Positions 33 to 62,337 of a DNA stretch of 64,000 nucleotides are shown piece after piece; positions within the stretch are counted from its first letter, which is position 1; each line of letters starts with the position of its first letter. Position numbers and translations under genes: made by a program. The DNA is taken from sequence record PZ452595.1; one strand, 5' to 3'. Source of the stretch: a phage. Under the pieces are notes generated by a model, which did no database searches, was not told the DNA's origin, and saw nothing but the letters and a program-made list of their open reading frames with translations.

Positions 33-2012
33 ATGACTTTATTATCTCCGGGCATTGAGCTCAAAGAAACTACGGTTCAAAGCACCGTGGTTAATAACTC
101 TACTGGTACAGCAGCTTTGGCCGGTAAATTCCAGTGGGGTCCTGCTTTTCAGATTAAACAGGTTACAAATGAAGTAGATTTAGTTAATACTTTTGGTCAA
201 CCAACCGCTGAAACTGCTGACTATTTTATGTCTGCGATGAATTTCTTGCAGTACGGAAATGACTTACGAGTAGTTCGTGCTGTTGATAGAGATACCGCTA
301 AAAACTCATCACCAATTGCTGGTAATATTGAATACACAATTTCTACCCCAGGTAGTAACTATGCGGTTGGAGATAAAATCACGGTCAAATATGTTTCAGA
401 TGATATTGAAACTGAAGGTAAAATTACTGAAGTAGACGCAGATGGAAAAATTAAGAAAATTAATATTCCTACTGCAAAAATTATCGCTAAAGCTAAAGAA
501 GTCGGTGAATATCCAGAATTAGGTTCTAACTGGACTGCGGAAATTTCTTCGTCTTCCTCTGGTTTAGCTGCAGTAATAACTCTTGGAAAAATTATTACTG
601 ATTCTGGTATTTTATTAGCTGAAATTGAAAATGCTGAAGCTGCTATGACAGCGGTTGACTTTCAAGCAAATCTCGAAAAATACGGAATTCCAGGAGTAGT
701 AGCTCTTTATCCAGGCGAATTAGGCGATAAAATTGAAATTGAAATCGTATCTAAAGCTGACTATGCAAAAGGAGCTTCTGCATTACTCCCAATTTATCCG
801 GGCGGTGGTACTCGCGCATCTACTGCTAAAGCAGTGTTTGGATATGGACCACAAACTGATTCGCAGTACGCTATTATAGTTCGTCGTAATGATGCTATTG
901 TTCAAAGCGTTGTTCTTTCGACTAAGCGTGGTGAAAAAGATATTTACGATAGTAACATCTATATCGATGACTTTTTCGCAAAAGGCGGCTCAGAATATAT
1001 TTTTGCAACTGCACAAAACTGGCCAGAAGGCTTCTCTGGAATTTTAACTCTGTCTGGTGGATTATCATCAAATGCTGAAGTAACAGCAGGAGATTTGATG
1101 GAAGCTTGGGACTTCTTTGCTGACCGTGAATCTGTTGACGTTCAACTGTTTATTGCGGGTTCTTGTGCCGGTGAATCTTTAGAAACAGCATCTACTGTCC
1201 AAAAACACGTCGTTTCAATTGGGGATGCTCGCCAAGATTGCTTAGTATTGTGCTCACCGCCGCGTGAAACTGTAGTTGGAATTCCTGTAACTCGTGCTGT
1301 TGATAACTTAGTCAATTGGAGAACTGCAGCAGGTTCATACACTGATAATAACTTTAATATCAGTTCAACCTATGCAGCAATTGATGGTAACTATAAGTAT
1401 CAGTATGACAAATATAATGATGTGAATCGTTGGGTTCCATTAGCAGCTGATATTGCTGGTTTATGCGCAAGAACTGATAACGTATCTCAGACTTGGATGT
1501 CTCCAGCTGGTTATAATCGTGGTCAGATTCTTAACGTTATTAAACTGGCTATTGAAACTCGCCAGGCTCAGCGCGACCGTTTATACCAAGAAGCTATCAA
1601 CCCAGTAACTGGTACAGGTGGTGATGGTTACGTATTGTATGGTGATAAAACAGCTACTTCTGTTCCTTCTCCATTTGATCGTATTAACGTTCGTCGTCTG
1701 TTTAATATGTTGAAAACTAATATCGGACGTAGTTCAAAATATCGTTTGTTCGAATTAAACAACGCGTTTACTCGTTCATCATTCCGCACAGAAACTGCCC
1801 AGTACTTGCAGGGAATTAAAGCTCTCGGTGGAATTTATGAATATCGTGTAGTTTGCGATACAACAAATAATACTCCGTCAGTAATTGATAGAAATGAGTT
1901 TGTTGCAACATTCTACATCCAACCGGCTAGAAGCATTAACTACATTACCTTAAACTTCGTAGCAACTGCTACTGGTGCAGATTTCGATGAGTTAACTGGT
2001 CTTGCAGGTTAA
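33..2012 (+). CDS. 18: Tail sheath protein gp18
   Basis: 659 aa ORF, same length as T4 gp18; N-terminus and position upstream of gene 19 match. Confidence 0.95.
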   Translation: MTLLSPGIELKETTVQSTVVNNSTGTAALAGKFQWGPAFQIKQVTNEVDLVNTFGQPTAETADYFMSAMNFLQYGNDLRVVRAVDRDTAKNSSPIAGNIEYTISTPGSNYAVGDKITVKYVSDDIETEGKITEVDADGKIKKINIPTAKIIAKAKEVGEYPELGSNWTAEISSSSSGLAAVITLGKIITDSGILLAEIENAEAAMTAVDFQANLEKYGIPGVVALYPGELGDKIEIEIVSKADYAKGASALLPIYPGGGTRASTAKAVFGYGPQTDSQYAIIVRRNDAIVQSVVLSTKRGEKDIYDSNIYIDDFFAKGGSEYIFATAQNWPEGFSGILTLSGGLSSNAEVTAGDLMEAWDFFADRESVDVQLFIAGSCAGESLETASTVQKHVVSIGDARQDCLVLCSPPRETVVGIPVTRAVDNLVNWRTAAGSYTDNNFNISSTYAAIDGNYKYQYDKYNDVNRWVPLAADIAGLCARTDNVSQTWMSPAGYNRGQILNVIKLAIETRQAQRDRLYQEAINPVTGTGGDGYVLYGDKTATSVPSPFDRINVRRLFNMLKTNIGRSSKYRLFELNNAFTRSSFRTETAQYLQGIKALGGIYEYRVVCDTTNNTPSVIDRNEFVATFYIQPARSINYITLNFVATATGADFDELTGLAG

Positions 2013-2028
2013 TACGGTGCATTCTAAA

Positions 2029-2046
2029 GGCCTGTTTCGGCAGGCC
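2029..2046 (+). terminator. Hairpin after gene 18 (ggcctg-tttcgg-caggcc)
   Basis: Perfect 6-bp inverted repeat directly after the gene 18 stop; may attenuate rather than terminate. Confidence 0.4.
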
Positions 2047-2047
2047 A

Positions 2048-2055
2048 TATAAATA
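2048..2055 (+). promoter_or_regulatory. T4 late promoter motif TATAAATA
   Basis: Exact TATAAATA about 75 nt upstream of the gene 19 ATG. Confidence 0.5.
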
Positions 2056-2106
2056 CACTATATCCTTAATTCTTTAATTCTATATGCCCTAGGTTAAACA
2101 TAGGGA

Positions 2107-2114
2107 TATAAATA
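2107..2114 (+). promoter_or_regulatory. T4 late promoter motif TATAAATA (P19)
   Basis: Exact TATAAATA 15 nt upstream of the gene 19 ATG, followed by SD AGAGG. Confidence 0.6.
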
Positions 2115-2128
2115 CTACAGAGGCTAAT

Positions 2129-2620
2129 ATGTTTGTAGATGATGTAACACGAGCGTTTGAATCTGGTGATTTTGCTCGACCTAACTTATTCCAAGTAGAA
2201 ATTTCTTATCTTGGACAAAATTTTACGTTTCAATGTAAAGCCACTGCTTTACCAGCTGGTATTGTAGAAAAAATTCCAGTCGGATTTATGAACCGTAAAA
2301 TTAACGTAGCAGGCGATCGTACATTCGATGACTGGACTGTTACAGTAATGAACGATGAAGCTCATGATGCTCGCCAGAAGTTCGTTGATTGGCAAAGCAT
2401 TGCTGCGGGGCAAGGAAACGAAATTACTGGTGGAAAACCTGCAGAGTATAAAAAGAGCGCTATCGTTCGTCAATATGCTCGTGACGCTAAAACAGTAACA
2501 AAAGAAATTGAAATTAAAGGTCTGTGGCCTACTAATGTGGGTGAACTTCAATTGGATTGGGATTCAAACAATGAAATCCAAACATTTGAAGTAACTCTTG
2601 CTCTCGATTATTGGGAATAA
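2129..2620 (+). CDS. 19: Tail tube protein gp19
   Basis: 163 aa, same length and position as T4 gp19. Confidence 0.95.
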   Translation: MFVDDVTRAFESGDFARPNLFQVEISYLGQNFTFQCKATALPAGIVEKIPVGFMNRKINVAGDRTFDDWTVTVMNDEAHDARQKFVDWQSIAAGQGNEITGGKPAEYKKSAIVRQYARDAKTVTKEIEIKGLWPTNVGELQLDWDSNNEIQTFEVTLALDYWE

Positions 2621-2626
2621 AATGAA

Positions 2627-2642
2627 TGGGGAGAAATCCCCA
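2627..2642 (+). terminator. Hairpin after gene 19 (tGGGGagaaatCCCCa)
   Basis: GC stem directly after the gene 19 stop. Confidence 0.45.
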
Positions 2643-2652
2643 TCCTGCTTAA

Positions 2653-56865: not shown

Positions 56866-57522
56866 ATGGCTGATTTAAAAGTAGGTTCAACAACCGGAGG
56901 CTCTGTCATTTGGCATCAAGGAAATTTTCCATTGAATCCAGCCGGTGACGATGTACTCTATAAATCATTTAAAATATATTCAGAATATAATAAACCACAA
57001 GCTGCTGATAACGATTTCGTTTCTAAAGCTAATGGCGGTACTTATTTAAATAAAGTAATTTTTAATAAAGGAATGACTGTTCCTGGCGCAGGGTCAGGTG
57101 ATAATGGTATTTTTGCTGGTCCTGGTGATAGTGCCACGTATGATACTACAAATATGGATATTGTTTCGTGGTATGGTATTGGTTTTAAATCATCACAAGG
57201 AACAGCAGGTAGAACTGTAGTAATTAACACACGAAATGGAGATATTAGCTCAAAGGGCGTAATTGAAGCATCACAAATCCGTGTAACTTCGTTATCACCA
57301 GTAAATAATTATGACCTTACGCGGAAAGATTATGTTGATGGAGCAATAAATATTGTTACAGCAAACGCAAACTCTAGGGTATTACGCTCTGGAGACACTA
57401 TGATAGGAAATTTAACTGCGCCAAACCTTTTTTCACAGAATCCTGCATCTCAACCCTCGCATGTTCCACGATTTGACCAAATTGTTATTAAGGATTCTGT
57501 TCAAGATTTCGGCTATTATTAA
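56866..57522 (+). CDS. 36: Long tail fibre distal connector gp36
   Basis: 218 aa in the T4 gene 36 position. Confidence 0.9.
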   Translation: MADLKVGSTTGGSVIWHQGNFPLNPAGDDVLYKSFKIYSEYNKPQAADNDFVSKANGGTYLNKVIFNKGMTVPGAGSGDNGIFAGPGDSATYDTTNMDIVSWYGIGFKSSQGTAGRTVVINTRNGDISSKGVIEASQIRVTSLSPVNNYDLTRKDYVDGAINIVTANANSRVLRSGDTMIGNLTAPNLFSQNPASQPSHVPRFDQIVIKDSVQDFGYY

Positions 57523-57530
57523 GAGGACTT

Positions 57531-60500
57531 ATGGCTACTTTAAAACAAATACAATTTAAAAGAAGCAAAACTGCAGGAGCACGTCCTGCCGCTTCAGTAT
57601 TAGCCGAAGGTGAATTGGCTATAAACTTAAAAGACCGTGTACTTTTTACTAAAGATGACCAAGGAAATATTATTGATCTGGGTTTTGCTAAAGGCGGTAG
57701 TATTGACGGGAATGTTATTCATACAGGCAATTATAACCAAACTGGCGATTATACTTTAAATGGTGTCTTCACTCAGACTGGTAATTTTAATTTAACTGGT
57801 ATTGCTCGAGTAACTCGCGATATTATTGCCGCTGGGCAGATTATGACTGAAGGCGGAGAACTTATTACAAAAAGTTCAGGTACAGCGCATGTTCGTTTTT
57901 TCGATAACAATAGTCGCGAACGCGGAATCATTTATGCCCCGGCTAATGATGGTTTAACTACACAAGTACTTAATATCAGGGTTCAAGACTACGCCGCTGG
58001 TAGCGAAAGCACTTATGCATTTTCAGGCAGTGGACTATTTACTTCACCTGAAGTATCAGCATGGAAATCTATTTCGTCTCCACAAATTCTGACCGACAAA
58101 GTTATTACAAATGGGAAGAAGACGGGAGATTATGACATTTATTCTATGGCAGACAACGTTCCATTGTCTGAAAGCACTACTGCTATTAATCATCTCCGTG
58201 TTATGCGCAATGCTGTAGGCGCTGGTGTATTCCATGAAGTTAAAGATAATGATGGAATAACTTGGTATACTGGAGATGGCTTAGACACTTATCTTTGGTC
58301 GTTTACCTGGACCGGTGGATTGAAAGCAGGCCATTCTATTTCTGTTGGTACTCCTGGTGGCAATAAAGGATACTCTGAATTAGGGACTGCTTCAATTTCT
58401 CTTGGCGATAATGATACCGGGCTAAAATGGCATCAGGACGGATATTTCTATACAGTAAACAACGGAACAAGAACTTTCATCTATGGTCCAGGAGAAACGC
58501 AAAGCCTTAGAAAAATGGTTATGGCTTATTCTCCAGATGGGCTTCTTATGACAACGCCACCGACAGAAAACTATGCTTTGGCTACTGTTGTTACTTACCA
58601 TGATAATAACGCATACGGTGACGGTCAAACTCTTTTAGGATATTATCAAGGCGGTAACTATCATCATTATTTTCGCGGTAAGGGTACTACAAACATTAAT
58701 ACTCACGGCGGTTTGTTAGTTACTCCTGGTAATATTGACGTTATTGGTGGTTCTGTTAATATCGATGGTAGAAATAATGCTTCTACACTGATGTTTAGAG
58801 GTAACACAACTGGTAGTAGTTCAGTTGATAATATGACAATTTCCGTTTGGGGCAATACGTTTACTAATCCTAGTGTAGGTAATCGTAAAAACGTCATGGA
58901 AATTTCTGATGCAACTAGCTGGATGAGTTATATTCAAAGACTTACAACAGGTGAAGTAGAAATGAACGTTAACGGTTCATTTGAATCATCTGGTGTTACT
59001 GCTGGAAATAGAGGAGTTCACACAACGGGCGAAATTTCATCTGGGGCTGTGAATGCGCTTCGTATTTGGAACGCAGATTATGGAGCTATTTTTAGACGTT
59101 CAGAAGGTAGTCTTCATATTATTCCAACTGCTTATGGTGAAGGTAAACATGGTGATATCGGCCCACTTCGCCCGTTTAGTATGGCTTTAGATACCGGTAA
59201 AGTTACTATTCCAGATTTACAATCAAGTTACAATACGTTCGCAGCGAACGGCTATATTAAATTTGTTGGTCATGGAGCGGGTGCCGGCGGTTATGACATT
59301 CAATATGCTCAAGCGGCTCCTATTTTCCAGGAAATTGATGATGATGCTGTAAGCAAATATTATCCTATTGTTAAACAGAAGTTTTTAAATGGTAAAGCCG
59401 TTTGGTCTTTAGGTACTGAAATTAATTCGGGTACATTCGTTATTCATCATCTGAAAGAAGATGGATCACAGGGCCATACATCAAGATTTAATGCTGATGG
59501 TACAGTTAATTTCCCCGATAACGTTCAGGTCGGCGGCGGTGAAGCTACTATTGCTCGCAATGGTAATATTTTCTCAGATATTTGGAAATCGTTTACTTCT
59601 GCGGGAGACACTACAAATATTCGCGATGCGATAGCTACTCGTGTTGCCAAAGAAGGCGATACGATGACCGGTAGGTTGACTTTATCTGCTGGAAATGATG
59701 CCCTTGTTTTAACTGCGGGCGCTGGCGCTTCATCGCACATCCGTAGTGATGTAGGTGGTACAAATAATTGGTATATAGGCAAAGGCGGCGGCGACAATGG
59801 TCTAGGTTTTTACAGTTACATTACACAAGGCGGTGTATACATAACAAATAACGGCGAAATAGCGCTTTCTCCTCAAGGACAAGGAACATTTAATTTTAAT
59901 AGAGACCGCCTTCATATAAACGGTACACAATGGACTGCGCACCAGGGTGGTGGCTGGGGAAACCAATGGAATCAAGAAGCTCCGATATTTATAGATTTTG
60001 GTAATGTTGGTAATGATAGTTATTATCCTATTATTAAAGGAAAATCTGGTATTACTAATGAAGGATACATATCTGGCGTTGATTTTGGTATGCGACGCAT
60101 TACTAATAACTGGGCGCAAGGTATTATTCGTGTAGGTAACCAGGAAAATGGTTCTGATCCACAAGCTATCTATGAATTTCATCACAATGGAGTTCTGTAT
60201 GTTCCTAACATGGTTAAAACTGGAGCAAGATTATCAGCTGGCGGTGGTGACCCGGTGTGGCAAGGCGCATGCGTTGTTATTGGTGATAATGATACTGGAT
60301 TAGTTCATGGTGGTGATGGACGAATTAATATGGTTGCAAATGGAGTTCATATTGCTTCATGGTCTTCATCTTATCATTCTCATCCAGGCCTTTGGGATTC
60401 AAACGGAGCTTTGTGGACAGAAGTTGGCAAAGCAATTATTTCTCATGGTCATTTAGTTCAGGCGAATGACAGCTATTCAACGTTTGTCCGTGATGTTTAT

Positions 60501-60842
60501 GTCCGCTCTGATATTCGTGTTAAAAAAGACCTCGTTAAATTTGAAAATGCTTCTGAAAAGCTTTCTAAAATTAACGGTTACACTTATATGCAGAAACGTG
60601 GAACTGACGAAGAAGGTAATCAGAAATGGGAACCTAACGCCGGTTTAATTGCTCAAGAAGTTCAAGCTATTTTACCAGAATTAGTTGAAGGCGACCCGGA
60701 TGGTGAAGCTTTACTTCGTTTGAACTATAACGGTGTAATTGGTTTAAATACAGCTGCAATCAATGAGCATACTGCAGAAATTGCGGAACTTAAATCAGAA
60801 ATTGAAGAACTTAAAGCATTAGTTAAATCATTGTTAAAATAA
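57531..60842 (+). CDS. 37: Long tail fibre distal subunit gp37 with C-terminal intramolecular-chaperone-like domain
   Basis: 1103 aa; last 120 aa (SDIRVKKDL...YTYMQKRG...coiled-coil end) resemble auto-cleaving fibre chaperone domains. Confidence 0.9.
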
Positions 60843-60846
60843 TAAG

Positions 60847-60862
60847 AGGGGCTTCGGCCCCT
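60847..60862 (+). terminator. Hairpin after gene 37 (GGGGC-UUCG-GCCCC)
   Basis: Stem with UUCG tetraloop between gene 37 and the gene 38 SD. Confidence 0.5.
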
Positions 60863-60873
60863 TGGAGGTTTAT

Positions 60874-61650
60874 ATGGCAGTAACAGGACCGTGGGTAGGA
60901 TCGTCTGCAGTAGTTAATACAGGACAAAATTGGATGGGTGGTGCCGCGCAGAGATTGAGAATGGGAATTCCGTTTTGGATGAGTAATATGATAGGTCGAT
61001 CTGTTGAAATAATTCACACGCTTGGAGCAGACCATAACTTCAATGGTCAATGGTTCCGAGATAGATGTTTTGAGGCAGGTAGTGCACCTATAGTGTTTAA
61101 TATCACTGGAGATTTAGTATCATATTCTAAAGATGTTCCTTTATTCTTCATGTATGGAGATACACCCAATGAATATGTTCAGTTGAATATACACGGCGTA
61201 ACGATGTATGGTCGTGGCGGTAATGGCGGTAGCAATAGTCCTGGCTCAGCTGGAGGTCATTGTATTCAAAACGATATTGGTGGGAGACTAAGAATTAATA
61301 ATGGTGGAGCTATTGCAGGCGGCGGTGGCGGCGGTGGCGGCGGATATTATTCTCCTTTTTCACAAATGAGATTGACCTTTGGCGGCGGCGGTGGGCGTCC
61401 GTTTGGTGCACCTGGCGGATCTATTGATATGCAATCAGGAGCGACTGGCGGTACTATTTCTGCACCTGGCTCAGGATCCGTGAATGGTATCTATAATGGT
61501 GGAAACGGTGGTGAAGTAGGTTCCGCGGGAGGTAGATGCAATATTCGCGGTCAAGGATCTGAATATAATGGCGGCGATGCTGGTTATGCCGTCATAGGGT
61601 CCGCTCCAACGTGGATAAATGTTGGAGCAATATATGGTCCAAGAGTATAA
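60874..61650 (+). CDS. 38: T2-type tail fibre adhesin gp38 with glycine-rich motifs
   Basis: Track start is TTG at 60862; the ATG at 60874 with SD GGAGG gives 258 aa; poly-Gly islands ([37 protein letters not shown]) separated by variable segments. Confidence 0.85.
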
Positions 61651-61680
61651 TTTGAATAAATATCCTTAAAAGGAGGGTCT

Positions 61681-62337
61681 ATGGCAGCACCTAGAATATC
61701 ATTTTCGCCCTCTGATATTCTGTTTGGTGTTCTAGATCGCTTGTTCAAAGATAACGCTACCGGGAAAGTTCTTGCTTCCCGGGTAGCTGTCGTAATTCTT
61801 TTATTTATGATGGCGATTGTTTGGTATAGGGGAGATAGTTTCTTTGAGTACTATAAGCAATCAAAGTATGAAACATACAGTGAAATTATTGAAAAGGAAA
61901 GAAATGCACGCTTTGAATCTGTCGCCCTGGAACAACTCCAGATAGTTCATATATCATCTGAGGCAGACTTTAGTGCGGTGTATTCTTTCCGCCCTAAAAA
62001 CTTAAACTATTTTGTTGATATTATAGCATATGAAGGAAAATTACCTTCAACAATAAGTGAAAAATCACTTGGAGGATATCCTGTTGATAAAACTATGGAT
62101 GAATATGCAGTTCATTTAAATGGACGTCATTATTATTCCAACTCAAAATTTGCTTTTTTACCAACTAAAAAGCCTACTCCCGAAATAAACTACATGTACA
62201 GTTGTCCATATTTTAATTTGGATAATATCTATGCTGGAACGATAACCATGTACTGGTATAGAAATGATCATATAAGTAATGACCGCCTTGAATCAATATG
62301 TGCTCAGGCGGCCAGAATATTAGGAAGGGCTAAATAA
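61681..62337 (+). CDS. t: Holin T
   Basis: 218 aa, same length as T4 holin; one N-terminal TM segment and large periplasmic domain. Confidence 0.93.
   Translation: MAAPRISFSPSDILFGVLDRLFKDNATGKVLASRVAVVILLFMMAIVWYRGDSFFEYYKQSKYETYSEIIEKERNARFESVALEQLQIVHISSEADFSAVYSFRPKNLNYFVDIIAYEGKLPSTISEKSLGGYPVDKTMDEYAVHLNGRHYYSNSKFAFLPTKKPTPEINYMYSCPYFNLDNIYAGTITMYWYRNDHISNDRLESICAQAARILGRAK

Follow-up and report, generated by a model that had tools for sequence, protein, structure and literature searches.

Natural length alleles of a 9-bp glycine-codon repeat in gene 38, coding for a predicted T6-type tail-fibre adhesin

A run of glycine codons inside a gene for host recognition raises the question of whether such a run can gain or lose codons in nature, and whether this would alter the host range of the phage. 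The question was addressed for gene 38 (60874..61650, + strand) of phage record PZ452595.1, of which a stretch of 64,000 nucleotides, here called the window, was analysed. A sequence-only reading had proposed that this gene encodes a T2-type adhesin and that a codon run around 61318..61345 is a natural site for in-frame expansion or contraction, with consequences for host range. It was found that relatives of the phage carry natural length alleles of this run, the glycine-rich motif 2 (GRM2), and that such repeat-number alleles separate near-identical genomes; they were seen in relatives, not in the window's own population. The best overall explanation, which is considered probable, is a T6-type adhesin with repeat-mediated insertions and deletions (indels) in GRM2 and in the hypervariable segment that follows it (HVS2).

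The open reading frame (ORF) starts with ATG at 60874 and stops with TAA at 61648-61650, which is included in the interval, and codes for a 258-aa protein (gp38) at the predicted tip of the tail fibre. A Pfam scan with E values up to 0.01 returned no family beyond two adhesin ones, GP38 (PF05268; 3e-71, 240 bits against a cut-off of 25, aa 45-258) and Gp38_N (PF21721; 1e-21, 76.6 bits against a cut-off of 25, aa 1-40). Sequence matches in the Protein Data Bank (PDB) were found to PP01 (9V85, 1e-78) and S16 (6F45 chain D, 7e-53). An AlphaFold2 model based on 36 homologues reached a mean predicted local distance difference test (pLDDT) value of 88 and superposed on 9V85 with a template modelling (TM) score of 0.87 and a root-mean-square deviation of 2.3 Å. 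When the model was compared with the PDB, only 9V85 and 6F45 matched (TM 0.87 and 0.76, respectively, normalised by target). The PDB sequence matches and the model both support the fold that gp38 shares with these two proteins, a beta-helix with a polyglycine-II sandwich and distal loops. As judged from sequence and modelled structure, the ORF is a receptor-binding gp38 adhesin with a predicted role in adsorption. T4 gp38 has the same gene name and map position after gene 37 but belongs to an unrelated family, being a gp37 assembly chaperone that is absent from the virion and that the literature calls very different. A T4-type chaperone was rejected for the window, since only adhesin families matched and gp37 ends in a Peptidase_S74 chaperone domain of its own (Pfam; 60507..60686, aa 993-1052). 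The proposed choice of adhesin over chaperone was thus borne out by Pfam families, structure matches and model, while the label "T2-type" was right for the adhesin family and wrong for T2 itself, as sequence comparison places the protein in the T6/Tsx subtype.

The N-terminal attachment domain (aa 1-40, 60874..60993, + strand) corresponds to Gp38_N and is predicted to dock on the gp37 trimer. It carries W7, W20 and W35, which align with tryptophans of S16 gp38 that serve in docking on gp37 (PMC6851490); W7 and W20 are conserved in at least 90% of the 36 homologues. This domain was modelled less confidently (pLDDT 51-64) than the C-terminal specificity domain (aa 113-258, 61210..61647, + strand; pLDDT 84-98), in which alignments show glycine-rich motifs interleaved with hypervariable loops. 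Glycine makes up 24% of gp38 and 33% of residues 121-258, and there are 14 runs of at least two glycines, the longest being G9 (aa 149-157) and G5 (aa 170-174). Across sets of 120 and of 36 homologues, the glycine blocks of the C-terminal half are invariant and the segments between them variable, as in the scheme of Trojet (2011). In the names of that scheme the long run is GRM2 and the five-glycine run GRM3, with HVS2 as the intervening loop.

GRM2 aligns to S16 151-GGGGGGGG-158, helix 3. This helix would correspond to GRM 3 in a numbering of ten motifs, described for S16 as the central, fully hydrogen-bonded polyglycine-II helix of a three-layer sandwich (PMC6851490). PP01 and S16 are OmpC binders with eight glycines followed by an aromatic or aliphatic residue, whereas gp38 of the window has nine glycines and unrelated loop sequences. 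HVS2, or loop B (61345..61380, + strand), is 12 aa long, has a T6-type sequence and represents a distal receptor-contact loop; its pLDDT of 84 was the lowest within the C-terminal domain. In PP01, loop B comes after the run, is necessary for adsorption and is a site of experimentally evolved mutations, and the host-range changes Q167R and M168I of PST map to HVS2.

In order to predict the receptor, three parts of gp38 were compared with the adhesins of phages whose receptors have been experimentally determined. The specificity domain was identical to that of FL23 at 145/146 positions, to T6 at 140/146, and to RB5 and RB27 at 138/146. Identity to the OmpA-type adhesins (FL12, FL18, FL20, M1, FL08 and AV119) was at most 116/150. 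The sole difference from FL23 in this domain is D235A, with D235 in place of the Ala carried by all Tsx-type sequences compared; six residues differ from T6 and eight from RB5/RB27. The four hypervariable segments are the same set as in T6, RB5 and FL23. Tsx is required by FL23 and FL44, as established experimentally, and is used by T6-like adhesins including RB5 and RB27, and likewise by CM8. As the domain is one residue away from FL23 and six from T6, Tsx is predicted as the most likely receptor; for PST, changes at three residues of HVS2 and HVS3 can bring in further receptors. At the N-terminus, gp38 agrees with the OmpA phage FL08 at 44/44 positions and with T6 at 26/46. With an N-terminus of the FL08 type and a C-domain of the FL23 type, attachment and specificity domains therefore assort independently. 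For the related phage AV121 (OR352951, 341..1132), the specificity domain matched FL23 (Tsx) at 143/149 positions and FL12 (OmpA) at 120/153. Its receptor may be Tsx; the phylogeny in the paper describing AV121 placed it with OmpA/lipopolysaccharide-dependent phages.

GRM2 (61318..61344, + strand) is encoded by nine glycine codons, GGC GGC GGT GGC GGC GGT GGC GGC GGA, that is, (GGCGGCGGT)x2 + GGCGGCGGA; position 61345, where the sequence-only reading had ended the run, is the first base of the following Tyr codon. Tandem Repeats Finder detected a period of 9 (2.9 copies, 100% match) and a period of 3 (8.7 copies, 82%), and the longest pure (GGC)n is two units. A near-perfect GGC/GGT run is therefore present as proposed, but its unit is not a trinucleotide, as a 9-bp unit repeats three times, in tandem, inside the coding sequence of a surface-recognition protein. 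GRM3 (61381..61395, + strand) is encoded by GGC GGC GGC GGT GGG and is followed by a conserved RPFG; G170-G174, R175 and P176 are invariant among the 36 homologues. An 11-nt direct repeat, GGCGGCGGTGG, occurs on the + strand at 61384..61394, 61318-61328 and 61327-61337, so that its copies bracket HVS2. GGC is enriched in the two long runs, where it accounts for 9/14 glycine codons versus 175/1059 (16.5%) across the window's remaining long ORFs (Fisher p = 1e-4). GGA and GGG occur in these runs as the last codon only; inside a run they would make G-homopolymers or GGAGG-like sites. The G+C content of gene 38 is 46%, versus 36% for the window, the glycine codons being the driver.

Length alleles were found in individual phage records. 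PYps14T and AV121 carry 12 glycines written as (GGCGGCGGT)x3 + GGCGGCGGA, which is the array of the window plus exactly one 9-bp unit, and the GRM2 DNA of PYps15T is identical to the window's array. PYps32T has 12 codons at GRM2, one of them for Val, and D5505 has a GRM3 with four glycines rather than five. Among the 60 best-matching phage records the segment measured 207 nt, save for three of 216 nt (PYps14T, AV121 and PYps32T) and D5505 with 204 nt, and a spread sample of phage records agreed with the 207-nt pattern. In gene 38, AV121 (from Denmark, on E. coli) is 5 substitutions away from PYps14T (from Berlin, on Yersinia), which argues that the 12-Gly allele circulates; PYps32T stands on a different background (22-25 substitutions). 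The HVS2 peptide is identical in the window and in the length-allele phages (PYps14T, AV121, PYps32T, PYps47T and ZN18). The window has the common form with nine glycines and a single HVS2; unlike the window, these phages have a T6-type N-terminal domain. The idea of a natural site for in-frame length change was therefore confirmed by the 9-bp gain in PYps14T/AV121, the 12 codons of PYps32T and rare shortened alleles, and survives the search for polymorphism among relatives.

Four of the five cultured GRM2/HVS2 length variants (ZN18, PYps14T, PYps32T and PYps47T) were isolated on Yersinia pseudotuberculosis, and Yersinia phages make up ~10/173 matching records. This is suggestive of an association of length variants with Yersinia hosts; the events are not independent, as they include two sibling pairs from one zoo. 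A 4-aa deletion reported for PYps35T by Hammerl et al. was rejected as an event of the glycine run, since it lies in the HVS3 loop (QYGN). A gain of 3 aa has been described for PYps55T.

The four genomes of two near-isogenic pairs were assembled from 50-kb pieces and compared base by base. PYps14T (166,935 bp) and PYps15T (166,925 bp) showed exactly three differences, all of them indels, and zero substitutions: a 9-bp GRM2 unit, a 3-bp Asn codon in HVS3 and TT in the tk region. PYps32T (165,733 bp) and PYps47T (165,778 bp) also showed exactly three, namely C/T in the capsid vertex gene, a 9-bp GRM2 unit and a 54-bp HVS2 duplication. In each pair, two of the three differences fall within ~170 bp of gene 38. 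Since a uniform fall of differences over 166 kb would give this with a chance of ~4e-6 per pair, the clustering in gp38 must be caused by selection, local hypermutability, or both. The TT indel is located at 132030 in PYps14T and 132018 in PYps15T, in a region where the annotation splits tk into two pieces that overlap or adjoin; either a homopolymer sequencing error or a genuine frameshift may account for it.

Published host ranges are available for all four phages. The values for Y. pseudotuberculosis and Y. pestis, respectively, are 78/128 and 9/9 for PYps14T (12 Gly), 85/128 and 8/9 for PYps15T (9 Gly, HVS3 without the Asn), 87/128 and 8/9 for PYps32T (12 codons, one Val), and 52/128 and 4/9 for PYps47T (9 Gly, HVS2 duplicated). 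These data show that all four length alleles are functional, and that host range moves with the gp38 events. Hammerl et al. describe PYps47T only as having a '15 aa insertion', and the glycine run does not enter their discussion.

Tandem duplications of HVS2 together with a glycine linker were observed in ZN18 (51 bp) and PYps47T (54 bp), with linkers of different lengths. The duplication junctions lie in 14-nt glycine-codon repeats common to GRM2 and GRM3. Reciprocal products without HVS2 were found in assemblies (P0004, P0009, P0030 and P0114). Such adhesins are probably defective or artefactual, as T6 with HVS2 or a GRM deleted was unrecoverable. In the Logan contig of SRR30543803 (33..2217), which holds the HVS2-deleted P0004, gene 37 codes for only 477 aa. 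Deletions of 579-686 bp in gene 37 recur in laboratory-evolved PP01 (PMC6027323), and the contig may stem from an evolved population, or a defective one, instead of reflecting misassembly.

The following mechanism is proposed. A single gp38 copy would cap the gp37 trimer through its N-terminal Trp-bearing helices, and its beta-helix would bear the three-layer polyglycine-II sandwich made of the glycine-rich motifs, with the hypervariable loops at the distal end binding an outer-membrane porin, most likely Tsx. GRM2 would be the long central helix of the sandwich and run straight into loop B. With GGC and GGT supplying nearly all codons of the glycine runs, short direct repeats result at the DNA level, three of 9 bp in GRM2 and one of 11 nt common to GRM2 and GRM3. 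The junction sequences suggest that these repeats misalign during replication slippage or unequal recombination. The outcome would be either an in-frame gain or loss of 9 bp or a duplication or deletion of the HVS2 module. A polyglycine-II helix has three residues per turn, and a 9-bp change would thus add or remove one turn. Most lineages are held at nine positions, yet longer alleles are viable and arise faster than point substitutions.

The position of the additional residues can be approached from the variants themselves. The 12-codon tract of PYps32T tolerates Val at position 11, T2-like and S16-like adhesins have a bulky residue at GRM2 position 9, and the pLDDT of HVS2 is the lowest of its domain. 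On these grounds, approximately the eight N-terminal glycines probably form the buried helix, with extra residues extending loop B. As these would probably feed into the loop, they would be expected to retune host range rather than switch it. The stronger version of this idea, in which the glycine-codon tracts act as a built-in indel generator that, by 9-bp steps in GRM2 and by repeat-mediated HVS2 duplication, lengthens loop B and retunes host range faster than point mutation, is put forward tentatively and is rated the less likely case. All three expansions seen added three residues, and three cases prove little. A literature search for gp38 together with slippage or tandem repeats returned nothing relevant; the papers of the Henning laboratory on K3/Ox2 host-range mutants were outside its coverage.

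Several observations weigh against the preferred reading. In a first census, which took in 236 homologous proteins (120 that represented clusters and 116 that were members of them), of which 228 were scorable, the segment after 'AIA/VIC' always occupied nine alignment columns, with G9 in 159 proteins and G8 in 39. The shorter pure-Gly runs arose mostly from substitutions at the ends, not from indels. True contractions with intact flanks (9 to 7, 6 or 4) were limited to five assembly-derived proteins, nearly all short-read; the shortened and HVS2-deleted alleles stem from short-read assemblies and may not represent viable phages. No run of more than nine glycines was detected in this census, where clustering at 90% identity hid the 12-Gly alleles, and a length fixed at nine was accordingly dropped once individual phage records had revealed them. 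Even so, the nine-position length was kept in all but 3 of the 60 best-matching records, a query with a synthetic 6-Gly allele retrieved no phage record carrying one, and DNA pattern scans with a variable gap gave nine codons in 6/6 loci (3 viral, 3 metagenome contigs). The same scans returned zero loci among genome contigs and were too few to inform.

The repeat itself is mildly unusual only. When glycine codons were drawn with the GGC/GGT-dominated usage of relatives at GRM2, a perfect period-9 tract of 26 nt appeared in 2.7% of draws of nine codons, and some tandem tract of at least 18 nt in 24%, which makes the repeat largely a consequence of the two-codon alphabet. It comprises only three units. 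A hairpin as an aid to slippage was rejected, since the GRM2 DNA folded no better than shuffles on either strand (z -0.8/+1.9), as computed with a tool that does not model G-quadruplexes. Finally, a further gp38 indel confounds the 9-bp change in both near-isogenic pairs: an Asn missing from HVS3 in one, a duplicated HVS2 in the other. Of the claim that glycine length alters host range, what stood is that the two members of each pair have different ranges; an effect of glycine number on its own was not isolated and is plausible but unproven.

These points lend some support to the possibility that GRM2 is a pure structural scaffold, with the repeat as a by-product, the variants neutral or slightly harmful, and the host-range differences caused by loop changes. 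The nine positions are retained across proteins of 49% to 100% identity, and relatives keep nine codons while GGC, GGT and GGA shuffle synonymously. The run is a central, fully hydrogen-bonded helix, its periodicity is near chance, and the scaffold is constrained, as T6 phages with whole GRM or HVS deletions were not recovered viable. The pair that differs mainly in glycine number shows a small host-range gap (78 vs 85 of 128 for 12 and 9 Gly), and the large gap (87 vs 52) was found in the pair that also carries the HVS2 duplication. However, at least two sequence backgrounds carry 12-codon alleles, the phages concerned form plaques and come from two countries, and the expansions are all of +9 bp, with none of +3 or +6 seen. 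In addition, the concentration of two-thirds of the genome-wide differences in ~170 bp in both pairs would be very unlikely for neutral passengers. Scaffolding as the whole account is therefore rated as clearly less probable than repeat-mediated indels in a T6-type adhesin.

A comparably modest chance is given to the glycine-codon tracts being mainly homology patches for the exchange of hypervariable cassettes, with length change as a side effect, a role stated in the literature by Krisch's group as modular shuffling (Tetart and Krisch). Homology to the OmpA-type phages ST2, FL12 and JE01 is 95-100% until the run and ends inside it, at query position 107/198. An N-terminus (44 residues) of the OmpA phage FL08 is joined to a C-domain matching the Tsx phage FL23, and the gp38 cassette is 100% identical to that of EPIMRB01 with breaks at 60479 and 61725. 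Laboratory recombinants of CM8 x EV240 swapped 'from HVS2 onwards'. On the other hand, Trojet et al. recovered among 14 chimeras no exchanges between GRM1 and GRM5, and synonymous third-position diversity was 0.23 in GRM2 and 0.46 in GRM3 versus 0.15 at other four-fold sites. Special conservation of the GRM DNA for a role as recombination linker was rejected, since its synonymous diversity is above that of the rest of the gene; the shared homology would thus be short and shifting. Exchange through the tracts is compatible with repeat-mediated indels, not exclusive of them. Because homology stops inside the run and laboratory recombinants swap from HVS2, the role as a recombination linker holds alongside the slippage mechanism.

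That the length variants arose as sequencing or assembly artefacts in a GC-rich tract of low complexity is highly improbable. Shortened or HVS2-deleted alleles do come almost only from short-read Logan or European Nucleotide Archive (ENA) assemblies, and on one of these contigs gene 37 is truncated as well. However, Berlin (PYps14T) and Denmark (AV121) yielded the 12-Gly allele independently, 5 substitutions apart, the HVS2 duplications of ZN18 and PYps47T are independent with different linker lengths, the tract of 27-36 nt is below any read length, and every variant is in frame.

The gene itself is already known, and good descriptions exist of its family, the fold and the modular logic. With the gp38 of T6, FL23/FL44, RB5, RB27 and CM8, the protein shares its length class, five glycine-rich motifs and four hypervariable segments, and with T6-type gp38 the nine-Gly GRM2 and the location between gene 37 and t, while its attachment domain is, unlike that of T6, of the FL08 type. 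Instability of GRM2 thus adds a small, testable point to a system that is already well described, and does not define a new type of system. Simple-sequence contingency loci of bacteria and the tropism-switching devices of phages are established, and the analogy with them is only that. The likeness to contingency loci consists in a short tandem repeat within a surface-recognition coding sequence, with length alleles that split near-isogenic genomes. The differences are that there are only three units, that in-frame changes modulate instead of switching on and off, and that no dedicated enzyme is involved.

The literature treats the glycine-rich motifs as an invariant scaffold, and here GRM2 shifts by 9-bp units and seeds loop duplication. 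If the proposed reading is true, a 'strictly conserved' scaffold motif would also be a source of rapid variation, and host range could be retuned, e.g. from E. coli Tsx towards Yersinia. For phage therapy and the engineering of host range, a cheap handle would lie in how many glycines lead into loop B, or in duplicating HVS2. As a caution, receptor predictors keyed on hypervariable sequences alone may miss length variants.

The genomic setting of gene 38 points to exchange as a unit. Its 777 bases are 100% identical to gene 38 of Escherichia phages EPIMRB01 and AUBRB02 and 99.4-99.5% identical to that of ESh32, ESh34 and vB_Eco_CP, and the exact protein was present on 13 contigs in a protein collection. 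Identity of the window as a whole with EPIMRB01 was rejected, since it covers only 60480 to 61724, between breakpoints in the 3' end of gene 37 and the 5' end of t. The module 36-37-38-t (56866..62337) had its best match, at 95.3%, in vB_Eco_CP. As the 100% identity is confined between 60479 and 61725, gene 38 is a shared cassette in a mosaic tail-fibre module and has been exchanged as a unit.

The gene order 36-37-38-t is as expected for an adhesin-type gp38 with a self-chaperoned gp37. Gene 37 (57531..60842, + strand) codes for the 1103-aa distal half-fibre that carries gp38, and gene t (61681..62337, + strand; Pfam Phage_holin_T, 6e-117) for the holin, the canonical downstream neighbour of gene 38. 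A ribosome-binding site, GGAGG (60864..60868, + strand), was read from the sequence 5 nt ahead of the ATG of gene 38. Between it and the gene 37 stop lies a GC-rich hairpin (60846..60863) with a UUCG tetraloop (GAGGGGC-UUCG-GCCCCUU). The + strand has no T-run after this hairpin, the terminator-like flag was raised on the - strand only, and its folding energy is unexceptional (z = -1.3). At the extreme 3' end of gene 37 (60775..60838), Tandem Repeats Finder detected repeats of 21 bp (2 copies, 90%) and 12 bp, encoding the tail of gp37 past the Peptidase_S74 domain, which by eye is coiled-coil-like. Gene 36 (56866..57522, + strand) is one intact ORF of 218 aa with a canonical MADLKVGSTTGG start. 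In EPIMRB01 it is annotated in two pieces (1866..2649), and this split may reflect a frameshift or a sequencing error in that record.

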